Below are positions 1-24,361 of a stretch of 64,000 nucleotides of DNA, in pieces. The position numbers and the translations under genes were made by a program. The stretch is from Candidatus Kapaibacterium sp. Lineage in GTDB: Bacteria > Bacteroidota > Ignavibacteria > Palsa-1295. Every line of letters begins with the position of its first letter. Position 1 is the stretch's first letter. Where the stretch lies: NCBI GenBank assembly GCA_038229915.1, contig JBBRNY010000001.1:33693-97692 (forward strand), given 5' to 3'. The notes below the pieces were generated by a model. That model made no database searches, was not told the origin of the DNA, and was given only the letters and a program-made list of their open reading frames with translations.

Positions 1-1
1 A

Positions 2-154
2 ATGATTGCCGGTGATGTTATCAAAGGCGATATTGTTATCACATTCGGTGCCGGTTCGATTACCGAACAAGCTCCGAAGATCCTGCAGGCAATACGCCAA
101 CGCTCGAACGGCTCGAAAACACTTAAACACAAGCCGAACAAAGTAACTGCTTAA
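2..154 (+). CDS. murC: UDP-N-acetylmuramate--L-alanine ligase, 3' partial (MurC C-terminus)
   Basis: Open frame running off the window start, ending ...GDIVITFGAGSITEQAPKIL-stop at 152-154. This is a MurC-type C-terminal motif, and the gene sits directly upstream of murB in a dcw cluster. Confidence 0.6.
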   Translation: MIAGDVIKGDIVITFGAGSITEQAPKILQAIRQRSNGSKTLKHKPNKVTA

Positions 155-159
155 CTGTA

Positions 160-1236
160 ATGTCACAAAAAAAGTATATAACGATCGGATTCGACGCCAG
201 CCGCGAACCGCTCGATGAATTGTTTTGGGTCGAAGCCGAAGTTGATGGCTCATGGACAACGATCACCACCTGCGACCGTCTGCGCTCTCGACGTGAGATC
301 GTCGAGCATGTCAGTGCGCTTGATTCTGCATTGATCGGAGTTGATTTCGCTTGTAGTTTTCCGATAGGGTTTTTGGAATACGTTGCATCCCAAAAGGTCG
401 CAACGACCCACCGAGAACTCAGCAAAAAGATCAGACAAGACCTCAAGAAAAATACCGATGACGGTATCCGTGTTTGGATCGATCTGATGGCGGCATATCG
501 CGAATCGAATGTCGAAACTTCTGATGAAACGCGGGCAAGAATTTTCCGCGGCAATCAGCGCCCCGACAACCGTCGCCGCCCTGAAATACCGATCGTCGAG
601 CGTCGCACCTTGGTCGAGCGTTTCCGTCGTATCGAGCGCATCCTTCGTCGCCAACAGCCCGAAGCACTGACAACGACACTGGGCATTCGCTACAATAAAT
701 TGACGGCACGGTATGAATACACCGAGTCGAATGCACGCGGACGTGCCGCGATCATTGGTATTGCACTGCTCGAACAACTTCGCGAAGTAAAACCCGAGAT
801 CGCCATTTGGCCGTTCGATAAACCCGCAGCCCTGACGGTTGCCGAAGTTTTTCCGAAAATGTTCGATGAGAAAATGCGACTCAGCAATGACGCCCTTCGC
901 GAATATTTTGATAGCGAAGAAGATAATGCACTTCATATCCCCAAAGAAGTTCGCGAGCAGGTGTATGCTCATCCGAAAGCACGCGAGGCCGTGTTTGCAT
1001 TACTTGGGATATTGAGTGCCGAGCGCCGCGAAGACAAAACTCTTCGCCCGATCAGAGACTATCGTGATGGTTTTTATGAAAACCCTGAAATACAACTCGA
1101 AGGCTGGGCGTATGGGGTCGGCTATAAAGAATTTCGACCGGATCCTAAAAAAATTGTGATCGCCGAACCGACGACAGAAACTGTTTCGGTAACGGAAATT
1201 GCCGAGCCGGCTATTGCTTCAACTCCGCAGGAGTAA
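160..1236 (+). CDS. hypothetical protein in the dcw cluster between murC and murB (possible RNase H-like fold)
   Basis: 358-aa ORF that exactly fills the murC-murB gap on the same strand. N-terminus YITIGFDAS...ALIGVDFACSFPIGF resembles the beta1-Asp / beta-strand pattern of RNase H-like (DUF429-type) proteins. The central part is Arg/Glu-rich. I could not recognise any ATP-grasp (Ddl) motifs. Confidence 0.6.
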   Translation: MSQKKYITIGFDASREPLDELFWVEAEVDGSWTTITTCDRLRSRREIVEHVSALDSALIGVDFACSFPIGFLEYVASQKVATTHRELSKKIRQDLKKNTDDGIRVWIDLMAAYRESNVETSDETRARIFRGNQRPDNRRRPEIPIVERRTLVERFRRIERILRRQQPEALTTTLGIRYNKLTARYEYTESNARGRAAIIGIALLEQLREVKPEIAIWPFDKPAALTVAEVFPKMFDEKMRLSNDALREYFDSEEDNALHIPKEVREQVYAHPKAREAVFALLGILSAERREDKTLRPIRDYRDGFYENPEIQLEGWAYGVGYKEFRPDPKKIVIAEPTTETVSVTEIAEPAIASTPQE

Positions 1237-1239
1237 GGT

Positions 1240-2163
1240 GTGGATCATCTTCGCAACTTGAGAGAAAAACTTACCGGTACTATCCGCGAGGATGTACCTC
1301 TTGCGCCGTTTACGACATTTCGTATCGGCGGCAACGCAAAGATCTATGTCGAGCCTACCACCGCTGAAGATGTGATCACCATTGAGCAATATGTTGCCGA
1401 GCACCAGGTCCCGCTATTTATTATTGGTAACGGATCAAACGTCCTGATCAGTGACAGTGGCTTCGATGGCATTGTAATGAATTTGGAGACAGGGTTCAAT
1501 ACTCTTGCCTGTGATGAACAAATTGTTACGGTCGGTTCGGGTGTACGAATGGCCACATTTGTTGATTTTGTTATTCGCAATAAATTGCGAGGAGTTGAAA
1601 TGCTTGCCGGCATCCCCGCCACTATCGGCGGTGCTGTTTGGATGAATGCCGGTTGTTATGGCGGCGAAACAAGCGATCATCTTCTTGATGTTTCTATTAT
1701 CCGTGATCGTGCTCTGGTGAAATTAACAAAAGAGCAGTGTGGTTTTCGTTATCGCCATACTGGTTTTCTAAAAGATGATGTTGTCCTTTCAGCACGGTTT
1801 GCGTTTGAGATCGGCGACCCAGTCGAGCTTCGTGAAATTAAATTGAAGCATCTCAAACATCGTAATGATGTACAGCCCGTAAATCTACCCAACTGCGGTT
1901 CGGTATTCAAGAATCCGAAGCCGAGATTTAGCGCAGAGTTGATCGAACAAGTCGGTTTGAAAGGTACTCGAATCGGCGGTGCGCAGATCAGCCCTAAGCA
2001 CGCAAATTTTATTGTAAATATTGATCATGCATCGGCAAGTGACATTATCGCATTAATGAATCTTGCCAGAAAAAAAGTTTTTGATGAGCATCAAATCGTA
2101 CTCGAACCTGAAGTACAACTCATCGGCTTTGTTAGTGACCCCATCGTGAAGCTCCCGAACTGA
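1240..2163 (+). CDS. murB: UDP-N-acetylenolpyruvoylglucosamine reductase
   Basis: GTG start. LAPFTTFRIGGNAKIYVEP and FIIGNGSNVLISDSGFDGIVMNL form an FAD-binding MurB signature, in dcw context. Confidence 0.9.
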   Translation: MDHLRNLREKLTGTIREDVPLAPFTTFRIGGNAKIYVEPTTAEDVITIEQYVAEHQVPLFIIGNGSNVLISDSGFDGIVMNLETGFNTLACDEQIVTVGSGVRMATFVDFVIRNKLRGVEMLAGIPATIGGAVWMNAGCYGGETSDHLLDVSIIRDRALVKLTKEQCGFRYRHTGFLKDDVVLSARFAFEIGDPVELREIKLKHLKHRNDVQPVNLPNCGSVFKNPKPRFSAELIEQVGLKGTRIGGAQISPKHANFIVNIDHASASDIIALMNLARKKVFDEHQIVLEPEVQLIGFVSDPIVKLPN

Positions 2164-2221
2164 ATCTCGTTTTCAAAGACAAGGTAATTGAGCGGATGTA
2201 TGTACTTCAGAAAGAAGCAAC

Positions 2222-3283
2222 GTGCAACTGCATATCAAACGACCAGGAAAGGATCATCACGAAGCATCGCCGAGAGGCTATGCTCCGCTTGATGAAGTAC
2301 GTCCTATCGAAGAACTCCTCGAAGAGTCGTTTCATAGTGATGGTGATCTCCTGGACACTGAAAGATCAAGCTGGAAGACATCGCGCTTGATCCCAAGAAT
2401 GTTATTCGTTGGCGCAATACTCTTGCTATTGGGTATTGTGTTTTTTGCGCGTGAGTTTCAATCTGGCGAGCCGTTGCAATCAGTGCGTGTCGAGGGCAAT
2501 CACGAGTTAATGACCAGCGAAGTACTCTCGCTTGCTTCGATCGACAGATCACACAAGTTCTACGACATCGATCTCAAAGGCATCGAACAGCGTGTGGCAA
2601 AGCACGGGCTTGTTCGTCAGGTCAGCATTCGCCGCGAAACGCACCCAAACACTATCGTTATTCATATTGATGAGCGCACTCCGATCGCGATGATCCGCTC
2701 GGCAAGTGGCGATCCTATTCTCGTTGATAATGATTTTCGTTTTTTCTTGCCAAAAAAACTTTCGGGTTTGCTTGACCCAAATAAATTACTGGCTGTGCCG
2801 GTACTAACGGGTATTACCGAAAAAGATACCGTTGCAATATTAGAAATGTCGCACATCGTCCATGAGATCACCACGACGGGTGATAGTTCGCTGCGCGAAG
2901 CCATCGGCGAATTGCGCCGCGCGCCGACCGGGGCATATGTGATCTATACTTCATTTTCGATGACACCGATCTTCATCGGCTCGCCGAGCGATGTTCGGTT
3001 TATGACAACCATCGAGCGCGACAGCAAGACATCGCAAAGCGCAAATGAACAGCGTCTGTTCGATCATCAGATCCAACTTCTGGCAAAACTATGGAAGCAA
3101 CAGTTGCGCAATGAAATTTGGTCACGTTCAACACTCTATGTAGATGCCCGTTTCAATGGACAAATCATTGTCCATCGCAAGGAGCACTCTGCAACAGCTA
3201 CCATTGCGATCGATAGCGCAAAGCGCCCGATCGCCTCGGCAGATCAGACATCCGGAGTTTACACTACAACCGCAGGACAATAA
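2222..3283 (+). CDS. ftsQ: cell division protein FtsQ (POTRA domain)
   Basis: Cytoplasmic N-terminus, one TM segment (LIPRMLFVGAILLLLGIVFFA), then a POTRA-like VRVEGNHELMTSEVLSLASI. Position between murB and ftsA. Confidence 0.8.
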   Translation: MQLHIKRPGKDHHEASPRGYAPLDEVRPIEELLEESFHSDGDLLDTERSSWKTSRLIPRMLFVGAILLLLGIVFFAREFQSGEPLQSVRVEGNHELMTSEVLSLASIDRSHKFYDIDLKGIEQRVAKHGLVRQVSIRRETHPNTIVIHIDERTPIAMIRSASGDPILVDNDFRFFLPKKLSGLLDPNKLLAVPVLTGITEKDTVAILEMSHIVHEITTTGDSSLREAIGELRRAPTGAYVIYTSFSMTPIFIGSPSDVRFMTTIERDSKTSQSANEQRLFDHQIQLLAKLWKQQLRNEIWSRSTLYVDARFNGQIIVHRKEHSATATIAIDSAKRPIASADQTSGVYTTTAGQ

Positions 3284-4656
3284 TGCAATACAACGAACAC
3301 TATCATCCATCAAAACCGTCGCCGATGTCATCGGCGCCAATGATCGGCGTGCCGGCAATGCTCGAACCGAGTAGGATCATTGTTGGTCTCGATATCGGCA
3401 CCACCAAAGTGTGCGCTATCGTTGCCGCGGTCTCTCTGAACGAGCCACATTCGATGACCATCCTTGGTGTCGGCACAGTTGCCGCCGATGGGCTGTCACG
3501 CGGAGTTGTGACGAACATTGATAAAACTGTTCGCTCGATAGAGCGTGCTGTTGCCGAAGCCGAGGCACAGTCGGGCGTAAAGATTCGCGAAGTGGTTGTT
3601 GGTATTGCGGGCGATCACATCCAATCATTCCAATCACGCGGTGTAGTGACGATCTCGAATCAAGATCGTCAGATCCGCCCCGAAGATATAGGGCGTTTGC
3701 TCGAAGACGTGAAGCGTATTCATCTGCCAAGCGACAGAAAGATCTTGCACGTGATCGCACAAGAGTTTATTGTTGACGGACAAGACGGATTTTACGAAGA
3801 ACCTGTCGGAGTCTCGGGCGTTCGTCTCGAGGCTACTGTTCACGTGATCAATGGCTTGGTTACTGCGGTGCAAAATATTTATAATTGCGTCGAGCGCGCG
3901 GGTTTGCGCGTTCACGACATTGTACTCGAACCACTTGCATCAAGTTATTCGGTTCTTGATGAAAAGGAAAAAGAAGCAGGCGTTGCACTCGTTGATATTG
4001 GTGGCGGCACAACTGATATTGCCGTCTTTGAAGAAAAAACTATTCGACATACGGCAGTGATCGGTATTGCCGGGCAAAAAGTGACTGAAGATATTCGCCG
4101 TGGCTTACAAATTCTTGGCGATCAGGCTGAGCGTCTCAAACGCGAATACGGTTGCGCTGTAGTGTCGCATATCGTTCGCGATGAGATCATTCAGCTTCCG
4201 GGTCTTGCCGGTCGTAAGCCGCGCCAGATACCACGTTCGCTCCTTGCACGTATTATCCAACCGCGTATGGAAGAAATGCTCGAGTTCTCGTATAACGAGA
4301 TCAAGCGTTCAGGTTTTGCGAGAAATCTTGGCGCCGGTGTCGTTCTGACTGGCGGAGGTTCGATGATCAATAGCACTCGCGAACTTGCCGAAGCTATTTT
4401 TAATATGGATGTCAAGATCGGAATGCCGATGAGTTTCGGCGCCGGGCTTGTCAAAGAGATCGAATCGCCGGTCTATGCCACTGCGGTCGGGCTGGTGTTG
4501 TATGCGTTCAAGAATTGCTCCCCAAGCTCATTGCCATCGTTCGTTGAAGAAGAACGCTCGAGCAATCAGCACGAAGAAGAATACATCGAAGATGAAGAGT
4601 CGCGCGAGAAACCGAACGTCATTGAAAAAATGAAACGTTGGTTTGAACATTTATAA
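3283..4656 (+). CDS. ftsA: cell division protein FtsA
   Basis: IVGLDIGTTKVCAIVA actin-like phosphate-1 motif and VDIGGGTTDIAVF. The ATG overlaps the ftsQ stop (ATAATG). An internal Met near 3358 (MLEPSRIIVGLD) is an alternative start. Confidence 0.9.
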   Translation: MQYNEHYHPSKPSPMSSAPMIGVPAMLEPSRIIVGLDIGTTKVCAIVAAVSLNEPHSMTILGVGTVAADGLSRGVVTNIDKTVRSIERAVAEAEAQSGVKIREVVVGIAGDHIQSFQSRGVVTISNQDRQIRPEDIGRLLEDVKRIHLPSDRKILHVIAQEFIVDGQDGFYEEPVGVSGVRLEATVHVINGLVTAVQNIYNCVERAGLRVHDIVLEPLASSYSVLDEKEKEAGVALVDIGGGTTDIAVFEEKTIRHTAVIGIAGQKVTEDIRRGLQILGDQAERLKREYGCAVVSHIVRDEIIQLPGLAGRKPRQIPRSLLARIIQPRMEEMLEFSYNEIKRSGFARNLGAGVVLTGGGSMINSTRELAEAIFNMDVKIGMPMSFGAGLVKEIESPVYATAVGLVLYAFKNCSPSSLPSFVEEERSSNQHEEEYIEDEESREKPNVIEKMKRWFEHL

Positions 4657-4696
4657 TAATTTTTATACACGTTAGTATTTGTTGGAGGATAGAACA

Positions 4697-6184
4697 ATGA
4701 TCGAACTCGATAGCAAAGAAGATTACGGCGCCAGAATAAAAGTCATCGGTATCGGCGGCGGCGGATCAAATGCCGTCAACGCGATGATCGACCGCGGACT
4801 CATCGGCGTAGAGTTTTGTGTGCTCAACACAGACATCCAAGCCTTGCAAGCTTCAGCGGCATCGCTGAAATTGCAGATCGGCAAACACCTCACTCGTGGG
4901 CTCGGTGCAGGTGCAAACCCTGACATTGGTCGTCGCGCTGTCGATGAAGATCACGAAGAAATTTCGCGATTGATCGGCAATAGTGATATGGTCTTTGTCA
5001 CTGCAGGTATGGGCGGCGGCACTGGTACCGGTGGCGCAGCACGCGTCGCGCAGATCGCCAAAGAGTGTGGTGCGCTTGTCGTAGGTATTGTCACTAAGCC
5101 ATTTCTTTTTGAAGGGAAGCGTCGTTTTCAACAAGCCGAAGACGGCATTCAAGAACTTCGCAAAAATGTTGATACGCTGATCGTTATTCCAAATCAAAAG
5201 TTGTTGGCACTTGTCGCTGAAAGCACTTCGCTACTTGACGGATTTGAAATAGCAAATCAAGTCTTATACAATGCTACTCGTGGCATTAGCGAACTCATTA
5301 CTCGTCACGGACATATCAACGTCGATTTTGCAGATGTTCGTACAGTAATGACCGATATGGGTGATGCCATTATGGGTGCCGGAGTTGCAAGCGGTGCGCA
5401 CCGGTCGGCAATTGCTGCTGAGAATGCGATCAGTTCTCCATTACTCGAAGGTGTTTCGATCCAGGGTGCACAAGGTGTCTTGGTAAATATCACTGGCGGG
5501 CGCTCGATGACACTGCTCGAAGTCAGTGAAGCAACGCAGATCATTCACGATGCAGCGGGCGACGACGCAAATATTATCTTCGGCGCTGTGCTCGATGAAA
5601 CGATGGACGAAGAGATCATGGTCACCGTGATCGCAACAGGATTTAATAACAAACCGACATTCACCGGGTTTGCAATTCAAGATAAAAATACTGTTCCATT
5701 CATCCCTGCCGAAGAAGCTCTCGGAGCAAAGCAAAAGCCATCGGTCGTGAGAATGACTCAGCCTATCAGTGCTGATGAATATGAAGCTCGAAAGAAGATC
5801 ATCGCTTCATCCCCACATCAGCATGAGCAGCACGAAGAGATGATCGCTGATGCGCAGCCGAAAGTTGAGCGTATGTCCAGAGGTACACTCGGCGAACGTG
5901 AAGAAAGCCCGAATGCTTTTGACCGTCTATCGGCAGGGGCGTTCCGTGCTTCGTCGATCAGATTGACACCTCAGAATGAAACATCACACGTCCCAAGCGG
6001 ACCGCGTGACCTGAAAGAATATGATACACCGGCGTATTTGCGTCGTGGTATTAATATCCCGACCATCGAAGAGCAAGAGGTCTCCGTCGAGCAAGAGCAG
6101 CCAGTATTTGAAGATAGCTATACTGCCGCACCTGTTCGCGAGCGCGACGACCGCCCGACGTTCTTAAGAAAAATTATGGATTGA
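4697..6184 (+). CDS. ftsZ: cell division GTPase FtsZ
   Basis: GGAGGA ribosome-binding site 7 nt upstream of the [20 protein letters not shown] and [11 protein letters not shown] are tubulin-like GTP motifs. Long disordered linker and a C-terminal [10 protein letters not shown] peptide. Confidence 0.95.
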
Positions 6185-6202
6185 TCACATCACTACAATA
6201 CG

Positions 6203-6535
6203 ATGATACAACATTCAATGACATCTACCACATTTGATATCGAAGGATACAAAGTGGTAAAAACATTTGGTATGGTGCGTGGCATCATTGTGCGGTCACG
6301 TTCGGTGATCGGCAATATTGGCGCCGCATTTCAGATGTTCGTCGGCGGTAACATTAGCATCTATACCAAGCTGTGCGAGGAAGCACGCGAGCATTCATTT
6401 CAGTTGCTTCTCGAACACGCTGACTCGATGGGCGCGAATGCGATTATCGGCGTTCGCTATGATGCAACCGAGATCGCCGCAGGAGTGAGCGAGGTTCTTT
6501 GTTACGGAACTGCCGTGATGGTAGAAAAGAAATAA
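6203..6535 (+). CDS. ybjQ: YbjQ/UPF0145 family protein
   Basis: 110 aa; YKVVKTFGMVRGIIVRSRSVIGNIGAAF...GANAIIGVRYDATEI...VLCYGTAVMV matches the YbjQ (DUF74) fold signature. Confidence 0.85.
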   Translation: MIQHSMTSTTFDIEGYKVVKTFGMVRGIIVRSRSVIGNIGAAFQMFVGGNISIYTKLCEEAREHSFQLLLEHADSMGANAIIGVRYDATEIAAGVSEVLCYGTAVMVEKK

Positions 6536-6552
6536 TCTTGAGTCTTAACCAT

Positions 6553-6594
6553 AAAAAAAGCCTTGCTCTTTCTGAGCAAGGCTTTTTTATTTAT
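6553..6594. terminator. bidirectional rho-independent terminator
   Basis: A-tract, GCCTTGCTC, 5-nt loop, GAGCAAGGC, then TTTTTTATTTAT, between the convergent ybjQ and the 6608-8236 gene. Confidence 0.8.
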
Positions 6595-6607
6595 ACAAAT
6601 GTAATAC

Positions 6608-8236
6608 TTATTGGCGAATCACCAAAACATTAAATCTCTCGCCGTTCGGGATATTGGTTGCTTGATCTTCGAGAAATATTTCCCAACGATTTGCTGCGCC
6701 ATTCCATTGGACACCGTAACCGAGTCCGTCAAACACACCACCACCAAGATTTTTCTTGAGCGGTGCCGCTACTGATTGATGAGTGACAAGCACAATATCG
6801 CTCTGGAGCATTCCGGGATAATTTAAGAATGTCACCCACGGGGAATTTGCGATAATATTTGCGGCTCCGACTGTATGAACATAGGCGGTTTTAGAATTAC
6901 CACCAACTTTAATAAAGCCATTATCAATATACAAAGATGTTCCGCTGGTACTGTTACCACTGTATCCGGCTTTCACACCGACACCGGTTGCGCTCTCGCC
7001 ATAAACTCCTGCTGCCGAAGTACCTGTCGAGCTGAGGCCATGAACACCGTAACCGTTACTGAGTGTAGATAGTCCTTGCACACCATCCCCTGCGCTTGAT
7101 GTCCCGGCGACGCCGATCGCTACATCAGTTGTTCCAAAGACACCAATTCCTGTTGAAACAGTTGGGTTTGGTCCGCTATTGCCGACAAGCCCATACACGC
7201 CGATATTTCCACTCGACCCGTACACACCTTTGCCGTTGTTATCGCTGCTAAAACCCCAAACACCATTGACTCCGGTACCTTTTATACCGACACTGCCATT
7301 TGTATTAGTAATAGACATTGATGGGCTTGGCGAGTTATCACTTTGTACAAAAGGCAAAGAAATGGTGACATTCGTTGGCTCCCATGAATTATTAGCGGCA
7401 TTCCAAATAAGTGCTTGCGTGTTTTGTGGCACGTTCGCACTGACATTAAAATTTCTGATCTTCGCAACATTCGGATTTGGATAACTACCGATCAAGTCAC
7501 CATTTGCTGGTCCCGTCGGTGGCAGCTCTATCGGGATTACTCCTGGAGCAATTTTGAAAAGCGTTACCGAACTATCAGTGATCTTTTGAGTACCTATTGA
7601 TCCATCGGTGACACTAAGAGTTGCCACGGGGCCGTTTGCATTGAGAACTGTAATACTTCCATCGGTATTTTGGACGCCCTGTACACCGCTTGCACCAGCA
7701 CCACCGCTCGAGCTGATCGTGATCTTTTTTGTTGCGACATCTTTATTGATGGTCGTCGACCCACCACCCACGAGCACTACATCGCCAAGAAGTGCATTCA
7801 AACTTGAGACCCCAGCAGTACCACCACCGCCACCGACAACACTGCCAGCCACATCGGCATAAGAAGCGCGAAGTGCGTACGGAGCCGATACTAATGCCGT
7901 TCGTGGGCTGAGTTCTGTGCCGCCATCGACACTCACTCCGAGAAAATATGCACGATCAAATGCTACGGTCACAGGAATTTCTGTCACTGAACCAATGATC
8001 GCATTGAATATGCCTTTAACAACTGGCACTGTTTGAACTTCAGTGAAGATCGCCACAGCACCCGAAGCACTTTCATAGAGCTTAAGAGTTAGTTGATGAT
8101 TCCCGTTCGGGATCAAATTCCCTGACGCATCGCTCAGAACACCCTGATAACTTATCGTGCGTGGGATCTGTGCAAAAGCTGTTGCCGATGACAACGACAA
8201 GAGTATGAGAAAACAAAATGTAGCAACGTGTTTCAT
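6608..8236 (-). CDS. secreted Gly-rich repetitive protein (beta-helix/tail-fibre-like surface protein)
   Basis: Signal peptide MKHVATFCFLILLSLSSATAFAQ. N-terminal ISYQGVLSD...LTLKLYES...FTEVQTVPVVKGIFNAIIGS module resembles the conserved head of FCB-group tail-fibre-like proteins. About 140 aa of Gly/Ser/Val periodic repeats (GVYGSSGNIGVYGLVGNSG, GVFGTT..GVAGTS..). No T9SS C-terminal domain. Confidence 0.6.
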   Translation of the reverse strand: MKHVATFCFLILLSLSSATAFAQIPRTISYQGVLSDASGNLIPNGNHQLTLKLYESASGAVAIFTEVQTVPVVKGIFNAIIGSVTEIPVTVAFDRAYFLGVSVDGGTELSPRTALVSAPYALRASYADVAGSVVGGGGGTAGVSSLNALLGDVVLVGGGSTTINKDVATKKITISSSGGAGASGVQGVQNTDGSITVLNANGPVATLSVTDGSIGTQKITDSSVTLFKIAPGVIPIELPPTGPANGDLIGSYPNPNVAKIRNFNVSANVPQNTQALIWNAANNSWEPTNVTISLPFVQSDNSPSPSMSITNTNGSVGIKGTGVNGVWGFSSDNNGKGVYGSSGNIGVYGLVGNSGPNPTVSTGIGVFGTTDVAIGVAGTSSAGDGVQGLSTLSNGYGVHGLSSTGTSAAGVYGESATGVGVKAGYSGNSTSGTSLYIDNGFIKVGGNSKTAYVHTVGAANIIANSPWVTFLNYPGMLQSDIVLVTHQSVAAPLKKNLGGGVFDGLGYGVQWNGAANRWEIFLEDQATNIPNGERFNVLVIRQ

Positions 8237-8420
8237 ATCTTTACAATTTAAATTTTCACCACAATTCGATAGGTAAGATGCGAGCAAGAGTAATCCAATC
8301 GAAGCTACCCGTTTTTACTTTCGGATCTCTTCGGTTGAGCTACGGACAAGACGCCTTACCACAAGGCAAAAACACCTTATTCTTTAAACGACTGATCAAA
8401 TCAGTTTGTGACAGGAATCT

Positions 8421-11328: not shown

Positions 11329-12246
11329 TTAACCGTTGATATTTATCGCCGCCCTCACAAAGCCGTCTGCATCTGCAATAAGCTTCTTGGCTTCTTGTGG
11401 GCTTACTGATCTTTTCTGCATTACGATAGCGCTCTTGACGTGATTGCCGCTGGTCTTTAATAACTCGGCTGCTTTCTCGTACTCAACTCCTGTTGCTAAC
11501 ATAATTATACGTTTTGCCCGCTCGCTGAGTTTCTGATTGGTGAGTTGGAGATCGACCATCATATTTTCATACACTTTTCCGAGACGAACCATCGTCGTGG
11601 TCGTGATCATTGTTACGATCATTTTTTGTGCTAATGCTGATTTCATTCTTGTCGAACCCATCAATACTTCGGGACCAACGACAGGACAGATCGCTTCGAA
11701 TAAATAACTCGTATCAAGACTTTCGCGTGGGTTAGTCGTGATTAGGACAGCCGCGGAACCCAATTCCGACGCCTTCTTCAGAGCTCCTATCACAAATGGT
11801 GTGCGTTTGCTGGCGGCTATACCAATGACCATATCTTTATCACTACACCGTTGCAATGCAATTTCGAGCCCACCTTTTTCGCTGTTATCTTCAGCGCCTT
11901 CTTGCGAACGAAACACTGCATCTTTTCCGCCGGCAATAATAGCTTGTATCTGGGCAGGGCTTGTCCCAAAAGTCGGCGGACACTCCGCCGCATCGATCAC
12001 ACCCATTCTGCCACTGGTGCCGGCACCAACGTAAAATAATCTTCCGCCATTCGAAAGAAGAGAAACAAGTTTGTTCACTACTTTTTCGATCTGCGGTATC
12101 TCCAGTTTCACCACCTGCGCAACTTTGGCATCTTCATCATTGATGAGCTTCAAGATTTCGCCCGTGCTCATCGTATCCAAGTTCATAGAACTTGGATTGC
12201 GTTGCTCAGTTGCAAGGTTTGAGACTTCCGTAAATAGCTCTGTCAT
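11329..12246 (-). CDS. murQ: N-acetylmuramic acid 6-phosphate etherase
   Basis: SIS domain LFYVGAGTSGRMGVIDAAECPPTFG. 305 aa. Confidence 0.85.
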   Translation of the reverse strand: MTELFTEVSNLATEQRNPSSMNLDTMSTGEILKLINDEDAKVAQVVKLEIPQIEKVVNKLVSLLSNGGRLFYVGAGTSGRMGVIDAAECPPTFGTSPAQIQAIIAGGKDAVFRSQEGAEDNSEKGGLEIALQRCSDKDMVIGIAASKRTPFVIGALKKASELGSAAVLITTNPRESLDTSYLFEAICPVVGPEVLMGSTRMKSALAQKMIVTMITTTTMVRLGKVYENMMVDLQLTNQKLSERAKRIIMLATGVEYEKAAELLKTSGNHVKSAIVMQKRSVSPQEAKKLIADADGFVRAAINING

Positions 12247-22940: not shown

Positions 22941-23360
22941 GTGACAACTATGAATATTATGAACGACAAAAAAGCATTTACCGAAGAAGAGCTCCGCCAA
23001 CGTTTGACACCGACGCAGTTTCATGTTACCCAAGAAAAGGGCACAGAACGGGCGTTTACTGGCGAGTATTACGATACAAATACCCCTGGGATCTATAATT
23101 GCATCGTCTGCGATACACCGCTGTTTGCCTCGGAGACGAAATTCGATTCCGGTTGCGGCTGGCCCAGTTTTTATCAACCTACAAAAGATGTCGTAGTCAC
23201 TGAGCATGTTGATCGTTCATTCGGAATGATCCGAAAAGAGATCGACTGTGCAACCTGTGGCGCACACTTGGGGCACGTCTTCGATGACGGACCACCGCCG
23301 ACAAATCTCAGATATTGTATCAACTCTGCATCGTTACAATTTAAACCGACCCAATCGTGA
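22941..23360 (+). CDS. msrB: peptide-methionine (R)-S-oxide reductase MsrB (cytoplasmic copy)
   Basis: Two CxxC zinc motifs (CIVCDTPLF, CATCGAHLGHVFDDGP) and the catalytic RYCINSASL. Confidence 0.9.
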   Translation: MTTMNIMNDKKAFTEEELRQRLTPTQFHVTQEKGTERAFTGEYYDTNTPGIYNCIVCDTPLFASETKFDSGCGWPSFYQPTKDVVVTEHVDRSFGMIRKEIDCATCGAHLGHVFDDGPPPTNLRYCINSASLQFKPTQS

Positions 23361-24361
23361 TCTATCGTTCGAAGAATAGAGCACTGCTCCAAAAAAAGGA
23401 AGCTACGCCCACACCCAAAGCAGTCGAGGCACCCGAACTTGGTTTCGGCAATCGCCCGAGTGTGCGAGGCCAGAGACTGGTCAATCAAAATGGGGCGTTC
23501 AATATTACTCGTATTGGCGAAGAAAAGAATCTTCTCAATAATGCATTCCATCAGATTCTTTCGATGGAGTGGGGCAGATTTTTTGGAATGATCTTAATTG
23601 GATTTTTAGTCACCAATATTATTTTCGCCTTTATCTATATTAACTTAGGGGTTGAGAATTTACAAGGAATGATCGGCACATCATTTCTCGATCAGATCAG
23701 CGAAGCATTTTTCTTTAGTACACAAACGCTGACAACACTGGGTTATGGGCGCATCAGCCCCGTAGGTTTTTCAACAAGTTTTGTGGCTTCGATCGAATCA
23801 ATGCTTGGCTTGCTCGCTTTTGCGATGGCAACAGGTTTGCTCTACGGACGCTTCTCGCACCCGGAAGCAAATATTCTTTATAGCAAGAATGCTCTGTTCG
23901 CGCCGTATCACGATGGTGTAGGCCTAATGGTCAGGATGGCAAACGGCAGACGCAACCAATTGATCGAGCTTGAAGCACTGGTTACTCTTGCCAGAAATGA
24001 GATCATTGATGGAGTAAACAAACGGAAGTTTTATGTGCTACCGCTTGAGCTTACAAAAGTATCAGTGTTAGCATCAAGTTGGACGCTGGTGCATCCGGTC
24101 ATCGAAGGCAGCCCATTCTTCGGAATGACATTCGATGAGATCAACGAAAGTGATGGAGAAATACTCGTGCAAATAAAGGCCTACGACGAAACGTACTCGC
24201 AAAATGTCTATTCACGTAGCTCGTTTATGGATGATGAAATTATCGTCGGCGGAAAATTTATCTCGGCAGTATCAGTTGATGAGCAAGGGCACTCGGTGCT
24301 CGATCTGAGGATGATCAGCGATTACGAAATCGTCGAAGTGCCGATAGCACGTAGCGCTTAG
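23357..24361 (+). CDS. inward-rectifier-type potassium channel (KirBac-like)
   Basis: Two TM helices with a pore TLTTLGYG selectivity-filter-like motif, and a C-terminal cytoplasmic beta-rich (IRK-C-like) domain. Overlaps the msrB stop by 4 nt. Confidence 0.75.
   Translation: MIYRSKNRALLQKKEATPTPKAVEAPELGFGNRPSVRGQRLVNQNGAFNITRIGEEKNLLNNAFHQILSMEWGRFFGMILIGFLVTNIIFAFIYINLGVENLQGMIGTSFLDQISEAFFFSTQTLTTLGYGRISPVGFSTSFVASIESMLGLLAFAMATGLLYGRFSHPEANILYSKNALFAPYHDGVGLMVRMANGRRNQLIELEALVTLARNEIIDGVNKRKFYVLPLELTKVSVLASSWTLVHPVIEGSPFFGMTFDEINESDGEILVQIKAYDETYSQNVYSRSSFMDDEIIVGGKFISAVSVDEQGHSVLDLRMISDYEIVEVPIARSA

Follow-up and report, generated by a model that had tools for sequence, protein, structure and literature searches.

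The open reading frame (ORF) of 358 codons at positions 160 to 1236 of the DNA analyzed here, a 64,000-nucleotide stretch from a Candidatus Kapaibacterium sp. genome (hereafter, the window), lies between murC and murB in a division and cell wall (dcw) gene cluster. Its product, referred to below as X, defines a subfamily of the DUF429-like RNase H superfamily that is new, lacks annotation, and has a degenerate active site; this subfamily is confined to Candidatus Kapaibacterium lineages and is encoded at a fixed position behind murC. Tentatively, X can be viewed as a lineage-specific accessory of the murC/division operon, a catalytically degenerate or repurposed RNase H-fold protein that would work by binding.

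The coordinates and the strand of this ORF proved to be exactly those in the initial annotation of the window, and the collinear arrangement of murC, murB, ftsQ, ftsA, and ftsZ on the same strand was confirmed by their domains and by homologous loci, all of which contain collinear orthologs with the FtsA and Tubulin/FtsZ_C domains. The frame ending at position 154 can be assigned to murC because its C terminus, a 50-aa remnant, aligns with the C terminus of the Mur ligase encoded upstream of the orthologous X gene in the related locus L001 (54% over 35 aa, E = 4e-10 in BLASTP), a protein with the Mur_ligase, Mur_ligase_M, and Mur_ligase_C domains. The tight spacing pointed out initially was also borne out, with 5 nucleotides (nt) separating X from the murC stop codon and 3 nt separating it from murB. 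X is a real gene under purifying selection: its comparison with the 89%-identical ortholog in locus L006 reveals 143 nucleotide differences, distributed as 30, 10, and 103 over codon positions 1, 2, and 3; of the codon changes, 87 are synonymous and 38 nonsynonymous. A 240-aa antisense ORF inside X was rejected as a shadow ORF because two stops arise in it in the same ortholog; the substitutions follow the frame of X. The GC content of X (0.507) matches that of the neighboring fts genes, with values for the neighbors in the range of 0.45 to 0.50. There were no significant repeats around X, no match to it in PADLOC, and no meaningful match in PHROGs, and the possibility that X is an anti-phage defense, mobile, or phage gene was rejected on the basis of these results and of the composition. 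An Rfam scan of window positions 1 to 8000 found no family, and the scan for sigma-70 promoters and terminators, which is uninformative for this phylum, showed no excess over shuffled sequences.

In a Pfam scan, X matches no family at E ≤ 1, and neither X nor its profile gave any usable match in NCBIfam or among the PDB sequences. Its fold was recognized from an AlphaFold2 model based on the family alignment, with a predicted local distance difference test (pLDDT) score of 83.8, a predicted template modeling score of 0.81, and a single disordered stretch at residues 331 to 355. The model has the β1-β2-β3-α-β4-α-β5-α core of clade D of the RNase H-like superfamily, and its nearest structural neighbors belong to that clade. 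They include RuvC, Ydc2, the poxvirus resolvase, several terminase nuclease domains, the RuvC domains of Cas12 and Cas9, YqgF/RuvX, Tex, and Spt6, with ASKHA-type kinases and actins ranking slightly lower. X has no close solved structure, since the Foldseek search of the PDB listed the same families but gave no match below an E value of 0.02. The same structural set has been defined as clade D, with DUF429 included, by Majorek et al. (2014; PMC3985635), who noted that strands 1 and 4 of DUF429 bear conserved residues with a putative catalytic role.

The initial annotation had compared the N terminus of X with the first strands of an RNase H-like or DUF429-type nuclease fold, citing the ITIGFDAS motif, the segment LIGVDFACSFPIGF, and an Arg/Glu-rich stretch, all of which are indeed present in X. 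This assignment holds at the superfamily level, through the structural model and a profile link to an unannotated family bordering DUF429, but X itself remains below the Pfam threshold, with no match to PF04250 at E ≤ 1 for X or at E ≤ 0.01 for its longer, tier-2 relatives. The bordering family consists of distant (tier-3) relatives of X and is represented here by a 50-member alignment, for which the only Pfam signal is DUF429, seen in 5 of the 50 members (best E value of 3.6e-6). Two further weak DUF429 matches were seen in tier-3 proteins P0057 and P0092, the latter with 22.9 bits against the PF04250 gathering score of 23 bits; the connection of this family to DUF429 thus consists of sub-threshold matches. 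The alignment of the X profile with that of the tier-3 family in hhalign covers 252 columns with 99.9% probability and an E value of 2e-35. A search with the tier-3 profile found no solved relative.

Similarly to the members of DUF429 (PF04250; COG2410, COG4328, and COG4923), X is built around an RNase H-like core whose structural neighbors include RuvC, Ydc2, terminase, and Tex/Spt6, and it is encoded on the chromosome, in a non-mobile, locally conserved context. It shares with the bordering family the motifs G-x-D-F-x-x-S-F-P (in strand 4), R-x-x-(D/E), W-P-F, E-(I/V)-(Y/F)-P, and E-G-W. In contrast to DUF429, X is linked to Pfam only through that intermediate family, lacks the Asp residues of strand 1 and of the C-terminal helix, has acquired an insert, an Arg-rich loop, and an acidic tail, and is encoded in the dcw cluster after murC. 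Compared to the RuvC, Ydc2 (Cce1), and poxvirus A22 resolvases, X contains inserts and is longer by about 200 residues, shares only 5 to 12% identity with them, and does not conserve their catalytic acidic tetrad. TEFM and the YqgF-like domain of Tex/Spt6 provide precedents for RuvC-like or YqgF-like pseudonucleases that serve as binding modules, but they show no detectable sequence relationship to X and function in transcription, a pathway unconnected to the cell wall or division. We know of no function that has been assigned to DUF429.

The fate of the active site was followed in a 41-sequence alignment of the tier-1 and tier-2 members (see below), whose register was checked by hmmsearch and hhalign. 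The acidic set of the tier-3 family consists of an Asp in strand 1 (VDWSG), an Asp in strand 4 (GxDFAFSFP), the R-x-T-E motif, the Glu of EIYP, and an Asp in the C-terminal helix (DAFDA), plus the EGW motif. In the X family, the position of the strand-1 Asp (residue 10) is occupied by Gly (9 sequences), Ser (23), Ala (2), Thr (4), or Met (1), and is not acidic in any of the 39 sequences aligned there. The register of this strand is unambiguous because the tier-2 motif IGWSGAREP aligns residue for residue with VDWSGAxxP. At position 12, Asp is found only in the clade of the window (D12 of IGFDAS; 9 sequences), with Lys, Arg, and Ser in 14, 8, and 8 others; given how conserved the rest of the protein is, such variability speaks against a simple compensation. 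The equivalent of the C-terminal-helix Asp (residue 273) is not conserved either, being Lys in 23 sequences, Asp in 5, and some other residue in the rest. The retained residues are D62, R156, D/E159, E229 (nt 844 to 846; present in all 41 sequences), and E314-G315-W316. Hence, X has lost two of the four acidic positions recognized in its closest homologous family, which sets it apart from active RuvC-type nucleases, and of the two strands that bear the acidic residues of DUF429, strand 4 has kept its residue and strand 1 has not. Throughout the RNase H-like superfamily, the catalytic metals are coordinated by the strand-1 Asp; a conventional nuclease mechanism therefore appears unlikely for X, judging from these alignments, and its initial description as a nuclease is not supported.

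The two halves of the core are those parts of X that can be aligned with the DUF429-like family. According to the DSSP assignment of the model, the N-terminal half contains strands at residues 5 to 12, 20 to 29, 32 to 41, and 57 to 61 and helices at residues 44 to 52 and 69 to 77, with pLDDT above 90 from residue 21 onward, and corresponds to positions 3 to 90 of the family profile. The C-terminal half includes a long helix (residues 189 to 210), the IAIWPF strand, the TVAEVFP strand with E229, additional helices, and the RPIRDYR and EGWAYG motifs, and aligns with the family at the WPF, EIYP, and EGW motifs. The insert of about 60 residues (approximately 88 to 150) has no counterpart in the tier-3 family in either hhalign or hmmsearch alignments. 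Its predicted helices at residues 84 to 97, 99 to 116, and 121 to 128 have pLDDT values of 82 to 94, and its invariant residues are K96, N98, D101, G102, W106, Y113, R114, and E115. They are followed by an Arg-rich loop with a pLDDT of 59 at residues 131 to 140; the loop region (125 to 148) has a net positive charge in 40 of the 41 X sequences and is RG/RD-rich in tier 2. In the next helix, E147, E153, R154, R156, and R157 are invariant and position 159 is either Asp (34 sequences) or Glu (7); in the hhalign register, R156 and D/E159 represent the R-x-T-E motif of the DUF429-like family. The subsequent β-hairpin has five invariant residues, N179, L181, T182, R184, and Y185.

The charge distribution is also conserved. 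The disordered C-terminal tail is net negative in all 41 family members, and in many tier-1 proteins, although not in the window copy, it ends with the peptide E(I/V)P(V/I)EEP(S/T)(L/P)S, e.g., EIPVEEPSLS. Tier-2 proteins carry a low-complexity N-terminal extension of 57 to 165 aa that is acidic distally and strongly basic beside the fold, with a net charge of +2 to +12 in its 40 fold-proximal residues. The core itself is 33% charged (54 Lys/Arg and 55 Asp/Glu in 325 residues). Given that 63% of the residues of X that are invariant in 13 genomes are polar, charged, or aromatic, compared to 29 to 33% for MurB, FtsQ, FtsA, and FtsZ, X looks like a protein that conserves an interaction or reactive surface and not merely a hydrophobic core.

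A search of 5.8 billion proteins revealed 35 relatives of X, every one of which was labeled “hypothetical”; 68 invariant columns are common to 33 full-length X sequences. An exhaustive profile search over 1.84 billion cluster representatives yielded three tiers of relatives: the window's own X family (tier 1); P0036 to P0043, proteins of 431 to 583 aa with full-length matches (tier 2; E values from 1e-91 to 1e-121); and proteins of approximately 260 to 300 aa that matched in two stretches (tier 3; E values from 1e-14 to 1e-3). Wherever the sources of tier-1 and tier-2 sequences are meaningfully named, they are either Candidatus Kapaibacterium/Kapabacteria or carry coarse Bacteroidota or Ignavibacteriota labels. 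The “Alphaproteobacteria” label of locus L008 is a binning artifact, since FtsA and FtsZ from this locus share 88% and 85% identity with those of the window. The best tier-3 protein has no dcw context, and the position in the dcw operon is unique to X among the DUF429-like relatives examined. The sources label the tier-3 proteins only as “hypothetical protein.” Several of them are fused to domains that handle nucleotides or RNA, namely, HD_4 (P0069 and P0091), HIT (P0085), and HEPN_Swt1 (P0108), and two to the precorrin-8X methylmutase CbiC (P0093 and P0095), which gives hints to the chemistry of the wider DUF429-like family.

All tier-1 loci with enough sequence have the gene order murE-murF-mraY-murD-ftsW-murG-U165-murC-X-murB-ftsQ-ftsA-ftsZ, in which the junctions often consist of overlapping stop and start codons and U165 stands for an uncharacterized membrane protein of about 165 aa with two helices and a PH-like domain. 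In tier-2 loci, murB is absent and the order is murC-X-ftsQ. X has the low-complexity N-terminal extension in the deep-branching Kapaibacterium loci L019 to L021 and L023 to L025; of these, L020, L021, and L023 to L025 show murC-X-ftsQ without murB, and the sequence of L019 stops just past X. As the first loci had all been retrieved through X and the sample was accordingly biased, the search was repeated with U165, which detected at least 150 clusters, all from Kapaibacterium where named. Three divergent U165 members on long contigs were examined, and each of the three contigs encodes an X homolog between murC and ftsQ (E values from 1e-117 to 1e-136). The question of whether related dcw clusters carry the same insert, raised in the initial annotation, can thus be answered: U165-murC-X is present in all 22 loci with at least 2.3 kb of sequence upstream of X, which represent about 19 distinct genomes owing to duplicates. 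The position behind murC is kept across lineages in which the identity of X is only about 33 to 45% (33% in L021). The identity of X to the window copy (44 to 89%) tracks that of FtsQ (44 to 90%) and falls below that of MurB (64 to 87%), FtsA (78 to 99%), and FtsZ (73 to 96%), which fits vertical inheritance, with X apparently diverging at the pace of a divisome accessory protein. Like other dcw components, X is encoded on the same strand as its neighbors, with no space for its own promoter or terminator, at a position maintained in divergent genomes; it is very probably cotranscribed and translationally coupled with murC and with murB or ftsQ. Kapaibacterium dcw clusters also contain sporadic passengers that differ by locus, a gene for a 23S_rRNA_IVP four-helix-bundle protein, an LprI-domain gene, and a glyoxalase gene, so the cluster evidently tolerates insertions in this lineage. 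No mention of X or U165 was found in the Kapabacteria literature.

Table 1. Genes in the window, segments of X, and selected features of related loci (coordinates refer to the window unless a locus is given)
Feature	Position (strand)	Description
murC, 3' end	2..154 (+)	Final 50 codons and TAA stop at 152-154
X	160..1236 (+)	ATG start, stop at 1234-1236, 358 aa; Kapaibacteria-specific DUF429-like RNase H-fold protein
X, residues 1-83	160..408 (+)	N-terminal half of the RNase H-like core, β1-β2-β3-α1-β4-α2
X, degenerate strand-1 site	187..195 (+)	Codons 10-12, G-F-D; G10 in place of the catalytic Asp of VDWSG
X, D62	343..345 (+)	End of β4, motif GVDFACSFP; Asp in 39/41 X sequences; aligns with invariant D77 of the DUF429-like family
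X, residues 84-128	409..543 (+)	Helical segment, bulk of the X-specific insert; motif KKNTDDG..W......YRE
X, residues 129-146	544..597 (+)	Arg-rich low-confidence (disordered) loop
X, residues 147-165	598..654 (+)	Conserved helix E..R...ERFRR(I)(D/E)
X, residues 174-187	679..720 (+)	Conserved β-hairpin LGIRYNKLTARYEY (LGIRYNKLTxRYE); strands at residues 176-179 and 184-187
X, residues 189-325	724..1134 (+)	C-terminal half of the core
X, residues 326-358	1135..1233 (+)	Acidic disordered C-terminal tail; pLDDT <50 at residues 331-355
Antisense ORF	250..972 (-)	Shadow ORF
murB	1240..2163 (+)	GTG start; FAD_binding_4 (1e-23) and MurB_C (2e-32)
ftsQ	2222..3283 (+)	POTRA_1 domain
ftsA	3283..4656 (+)	78-99% identity to FtsA of homologous loci
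ftsZ	4679..6184 (+)	73-96% identity to FtsZ of homologous loci
YbjQ-like gene	6203..6535 (+)	110 aa
Gly/Ser/Thr-rich protein gene	6608..8287 (-)	559 aa, repetitive
SIS-domain protein gene	11329..12246 (-)	305 aa; GKRP_SIS_N, SIS, GKRP-like_C
KirBac-like channel gene	23357..24361 (+)	334 aa; Ion_trans_2 and IRK_C (7e-17)
X homolog, example	L021: 10001-11332	Deep-branching lineage
Passenger genes	L021: 1825-2187, L021: 4803-5732, L024: 4344-4721, L025: 1709-2071

The initial annotation placed X in the slot normally occupied by ddl, and this view is not supported. X is encoded between murC and murB and not behind murB, where ddl is found in clusters that have both. The related statement that there is no ddl between murB and ftsQ was confirmed by tblastn: a search with the E. 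coli DdlB sequence, verified as Ddl by Pfam (E = 6e-75), detected no ddl in that interval or in the entire window, and about 20 related loci likewise showed none within 10 kb of X. This absence is the expected state, as Léonard et al. (2022) described the loss of murB and ddlB from the dcw cluster as characteristic of the Fibrobacteres-Bacteroidetes-Chlorobi superphylum. Given the presence of murF in the cluster, D-Ala-D-Ala must be needed, and a canonical Ddl is expected to be encoded elsewhere in the genome. The idea that X is itself a divergent or non-homologous D-Ala-D-Ala ligase draws on position, as the murC-X-ftsQ order of deep lineages (and of these alone) mimics the murC-ddlB-ftsQ order of E. 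coli, and on the lack of a nearby ddl. It is virtually untenable, as X shows no ATP-grasp or Ddl hidden Markov model signal at E ≤ 1, at which the DdlB control scores 6e-75, in agreement with the initial failure to recognize ATP-grasp motifs in it, and its fold is RNase H-like and not ATP-grasp. The same low credibility applies to a fused or decayed pseudogene, in view of the intact frame and the purifying selection in more than 40 sequences. Accordingly, neither a divergent Ddl nor a fused pseudogene, both named in advance as refuting the initial interpretation, was found in the profiles, the fold, or the pattern of selection.

The tentatively favored scenario holds that X descended from the DUF429-like (clade-D, RuvC-type) RNase H-fold family and became fixed in the dcw operon behind murC. 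It would have retained its fold along with part of the ancestral acidic site (D62, R156/D-E159, E229, and the EGW motif), lost the Asp residues of strand 1 and of the C-terminal helix, and gained the charged helical insert, the Arg-rich disordered loop, and the acidic disordered tail, to which the deep branches would have added the basic N-terminal extension. Such a “pseudonuclease” could be expected to bind a polyanion, either a nucleic acid or a ligand linked to a nucleotide, or protein partners, or both, and to assist MurC-stage peptidoglycan synthesis or division as an accessory factor specific to this lineage, possibly acting together with U165, whose gene invariably precedes murC. This scenario is quite possible, if somewhat short of probable, and several observations weigh against it. 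The retention of E46, D62, D/E159, and E229, along with the new invariant triplet R15-E16-P17 adjacent to strand 1, would be compatible with a remodeled site, and so many invariant charged residues are typical of enzymes as well. Furthermore, a functional link cannot be established from operon position alone, particularly in clusters that house such obvious passengers as the 23S_rRNA_IVP, LprI, and glyoxalase genes, and, with every X locus retrieved through either X or U165, the counts given above are no measure of the prevalence of X across Kapaibacteria. A more specific version, in which X and U165 form a two-part Kapaibacteria module bracketing murC and the co-opted RuvC-fold pseudonuclease becomes a new component of the divisome or of peptidoglycan synthesis, is unlikely as it stands. 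There, U165 would tether X to the membrane, perhaps via its acidic C-terminal tail, and X might link septal wall synthesis to precursor supply or to the status of nucleic acids or the nucleoid.

The remodeled site just mentioned would make X a still active hydrolase, either a nuclease or resolvase acting on DNA or RNA or an enzyme with a nucleotide-linked substrate, in which the retained acidic residues would be joined by R15-E16-P17, K96, D101, E115, R156/R157, D255, and D300. The fold class, nearly all members of which are nucleases, the partial preservation of the ancestral acidic set, the 54 invariant and mostly charged positions, and the D12 of the window's clade, located on the same face of strand 1 two residues past the lost Asp, are all compatible with such activity, but the metal-coordinating strand-1 Asp is missing from 39 of the 39 sequences, on one of the very strands stressed by Majorek et al. 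(2014; PMC3985635), the variability at the +2 position speaks against a conserved catalytic function there, and the Asp of the C-terminal helix is lost as well, making an active hydrolase a somewhat unlikely option. It is distinctly unlikely that X is just a long-resident passenger, e.g., a housekeeping RNA or DNA factor with no link to the cell wall or division. Unrelated genes do enter Kapaibacterium dcw clusters and DUF429-like relatives are encoded elsewhere without any dcw context, but sporadic passengers vary between loci, whereas X stays behind murC despite its sequence divergence, with coupled or overlapping junctions and with U165 always co-occurring. Even less probable is a role of X in sensing or processing UDP-N-acetylmuramic acid (UDP-MurNAc) or UDP-MurNAc-L-Ala, as a regulator or an editing enzyme coupled to MurC and MurB. 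Its location right behind murC and, in most lineages, right before murB would suit this role, as would the fusions of wider DUF429-like relatives to nucleotide-handling HD_4, HIT, NUDIX, and RelA/SpoT domains; however, no nucleotide-binding motif or pocket was identified in X, the fusions belong to distant relatives with the full acidic tetrad, those with CbiC and HEPN do not fit, and murB is not adjacent to X in deep lineages.

Some other genes of the window deserve a brief mention. The YbjQ-like gene located directly after ftsZ is conserved at this position in several related loci, with PF01906 matches in L001 and L004; in others, its place is taken by rnpA. It is followed, downstream of the cluster, by the gene for a probably secreted Gly/Ser/Thr-rich protein, whose L001 counterpart weakly matches DUF7452. 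The SIS-domain protein encoded 10 kb from the dcw cluster resembles MurQ-type N-acetylmuramic acid-6-phosphate etherases, which are of the cell-wall recycling type. The 334-aa protein can be recognized as a KirBac-like channel because it combines an Ion_trans_2 pore with the C-terminal domain of inward-rectifier K+ channels (IRK_C).

Few gene arrays in bacteria are as conserved as the dcw cluster, so that genes with a fixed place in it throughout an entire class make good candidates for unrecognized division or cell wall factors. In every Kapaibacteria locus examined, murC is flanked by two proteins found in no other lineage, X and U165. Kapaibacteria are essentially uncultured, which slows the testing of these predictions. 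Should X turn out to be a mere passenger, the outcome would be a tidy annotation, that of a new DUF429-like subfamily that is not Ddl. If, on the other hand, X and U165 act in division or peptidoglycan synthesis, a RuvC-type pseudonuclease would constitute a new fold class in the divisome repertoire, and X would offer the first functional foothold for the uncharacterized DUF429-like superfamily. If the two-part module is real, X would be the first example of an RNase H-like pseudonuclease dedicated to bacterial division.

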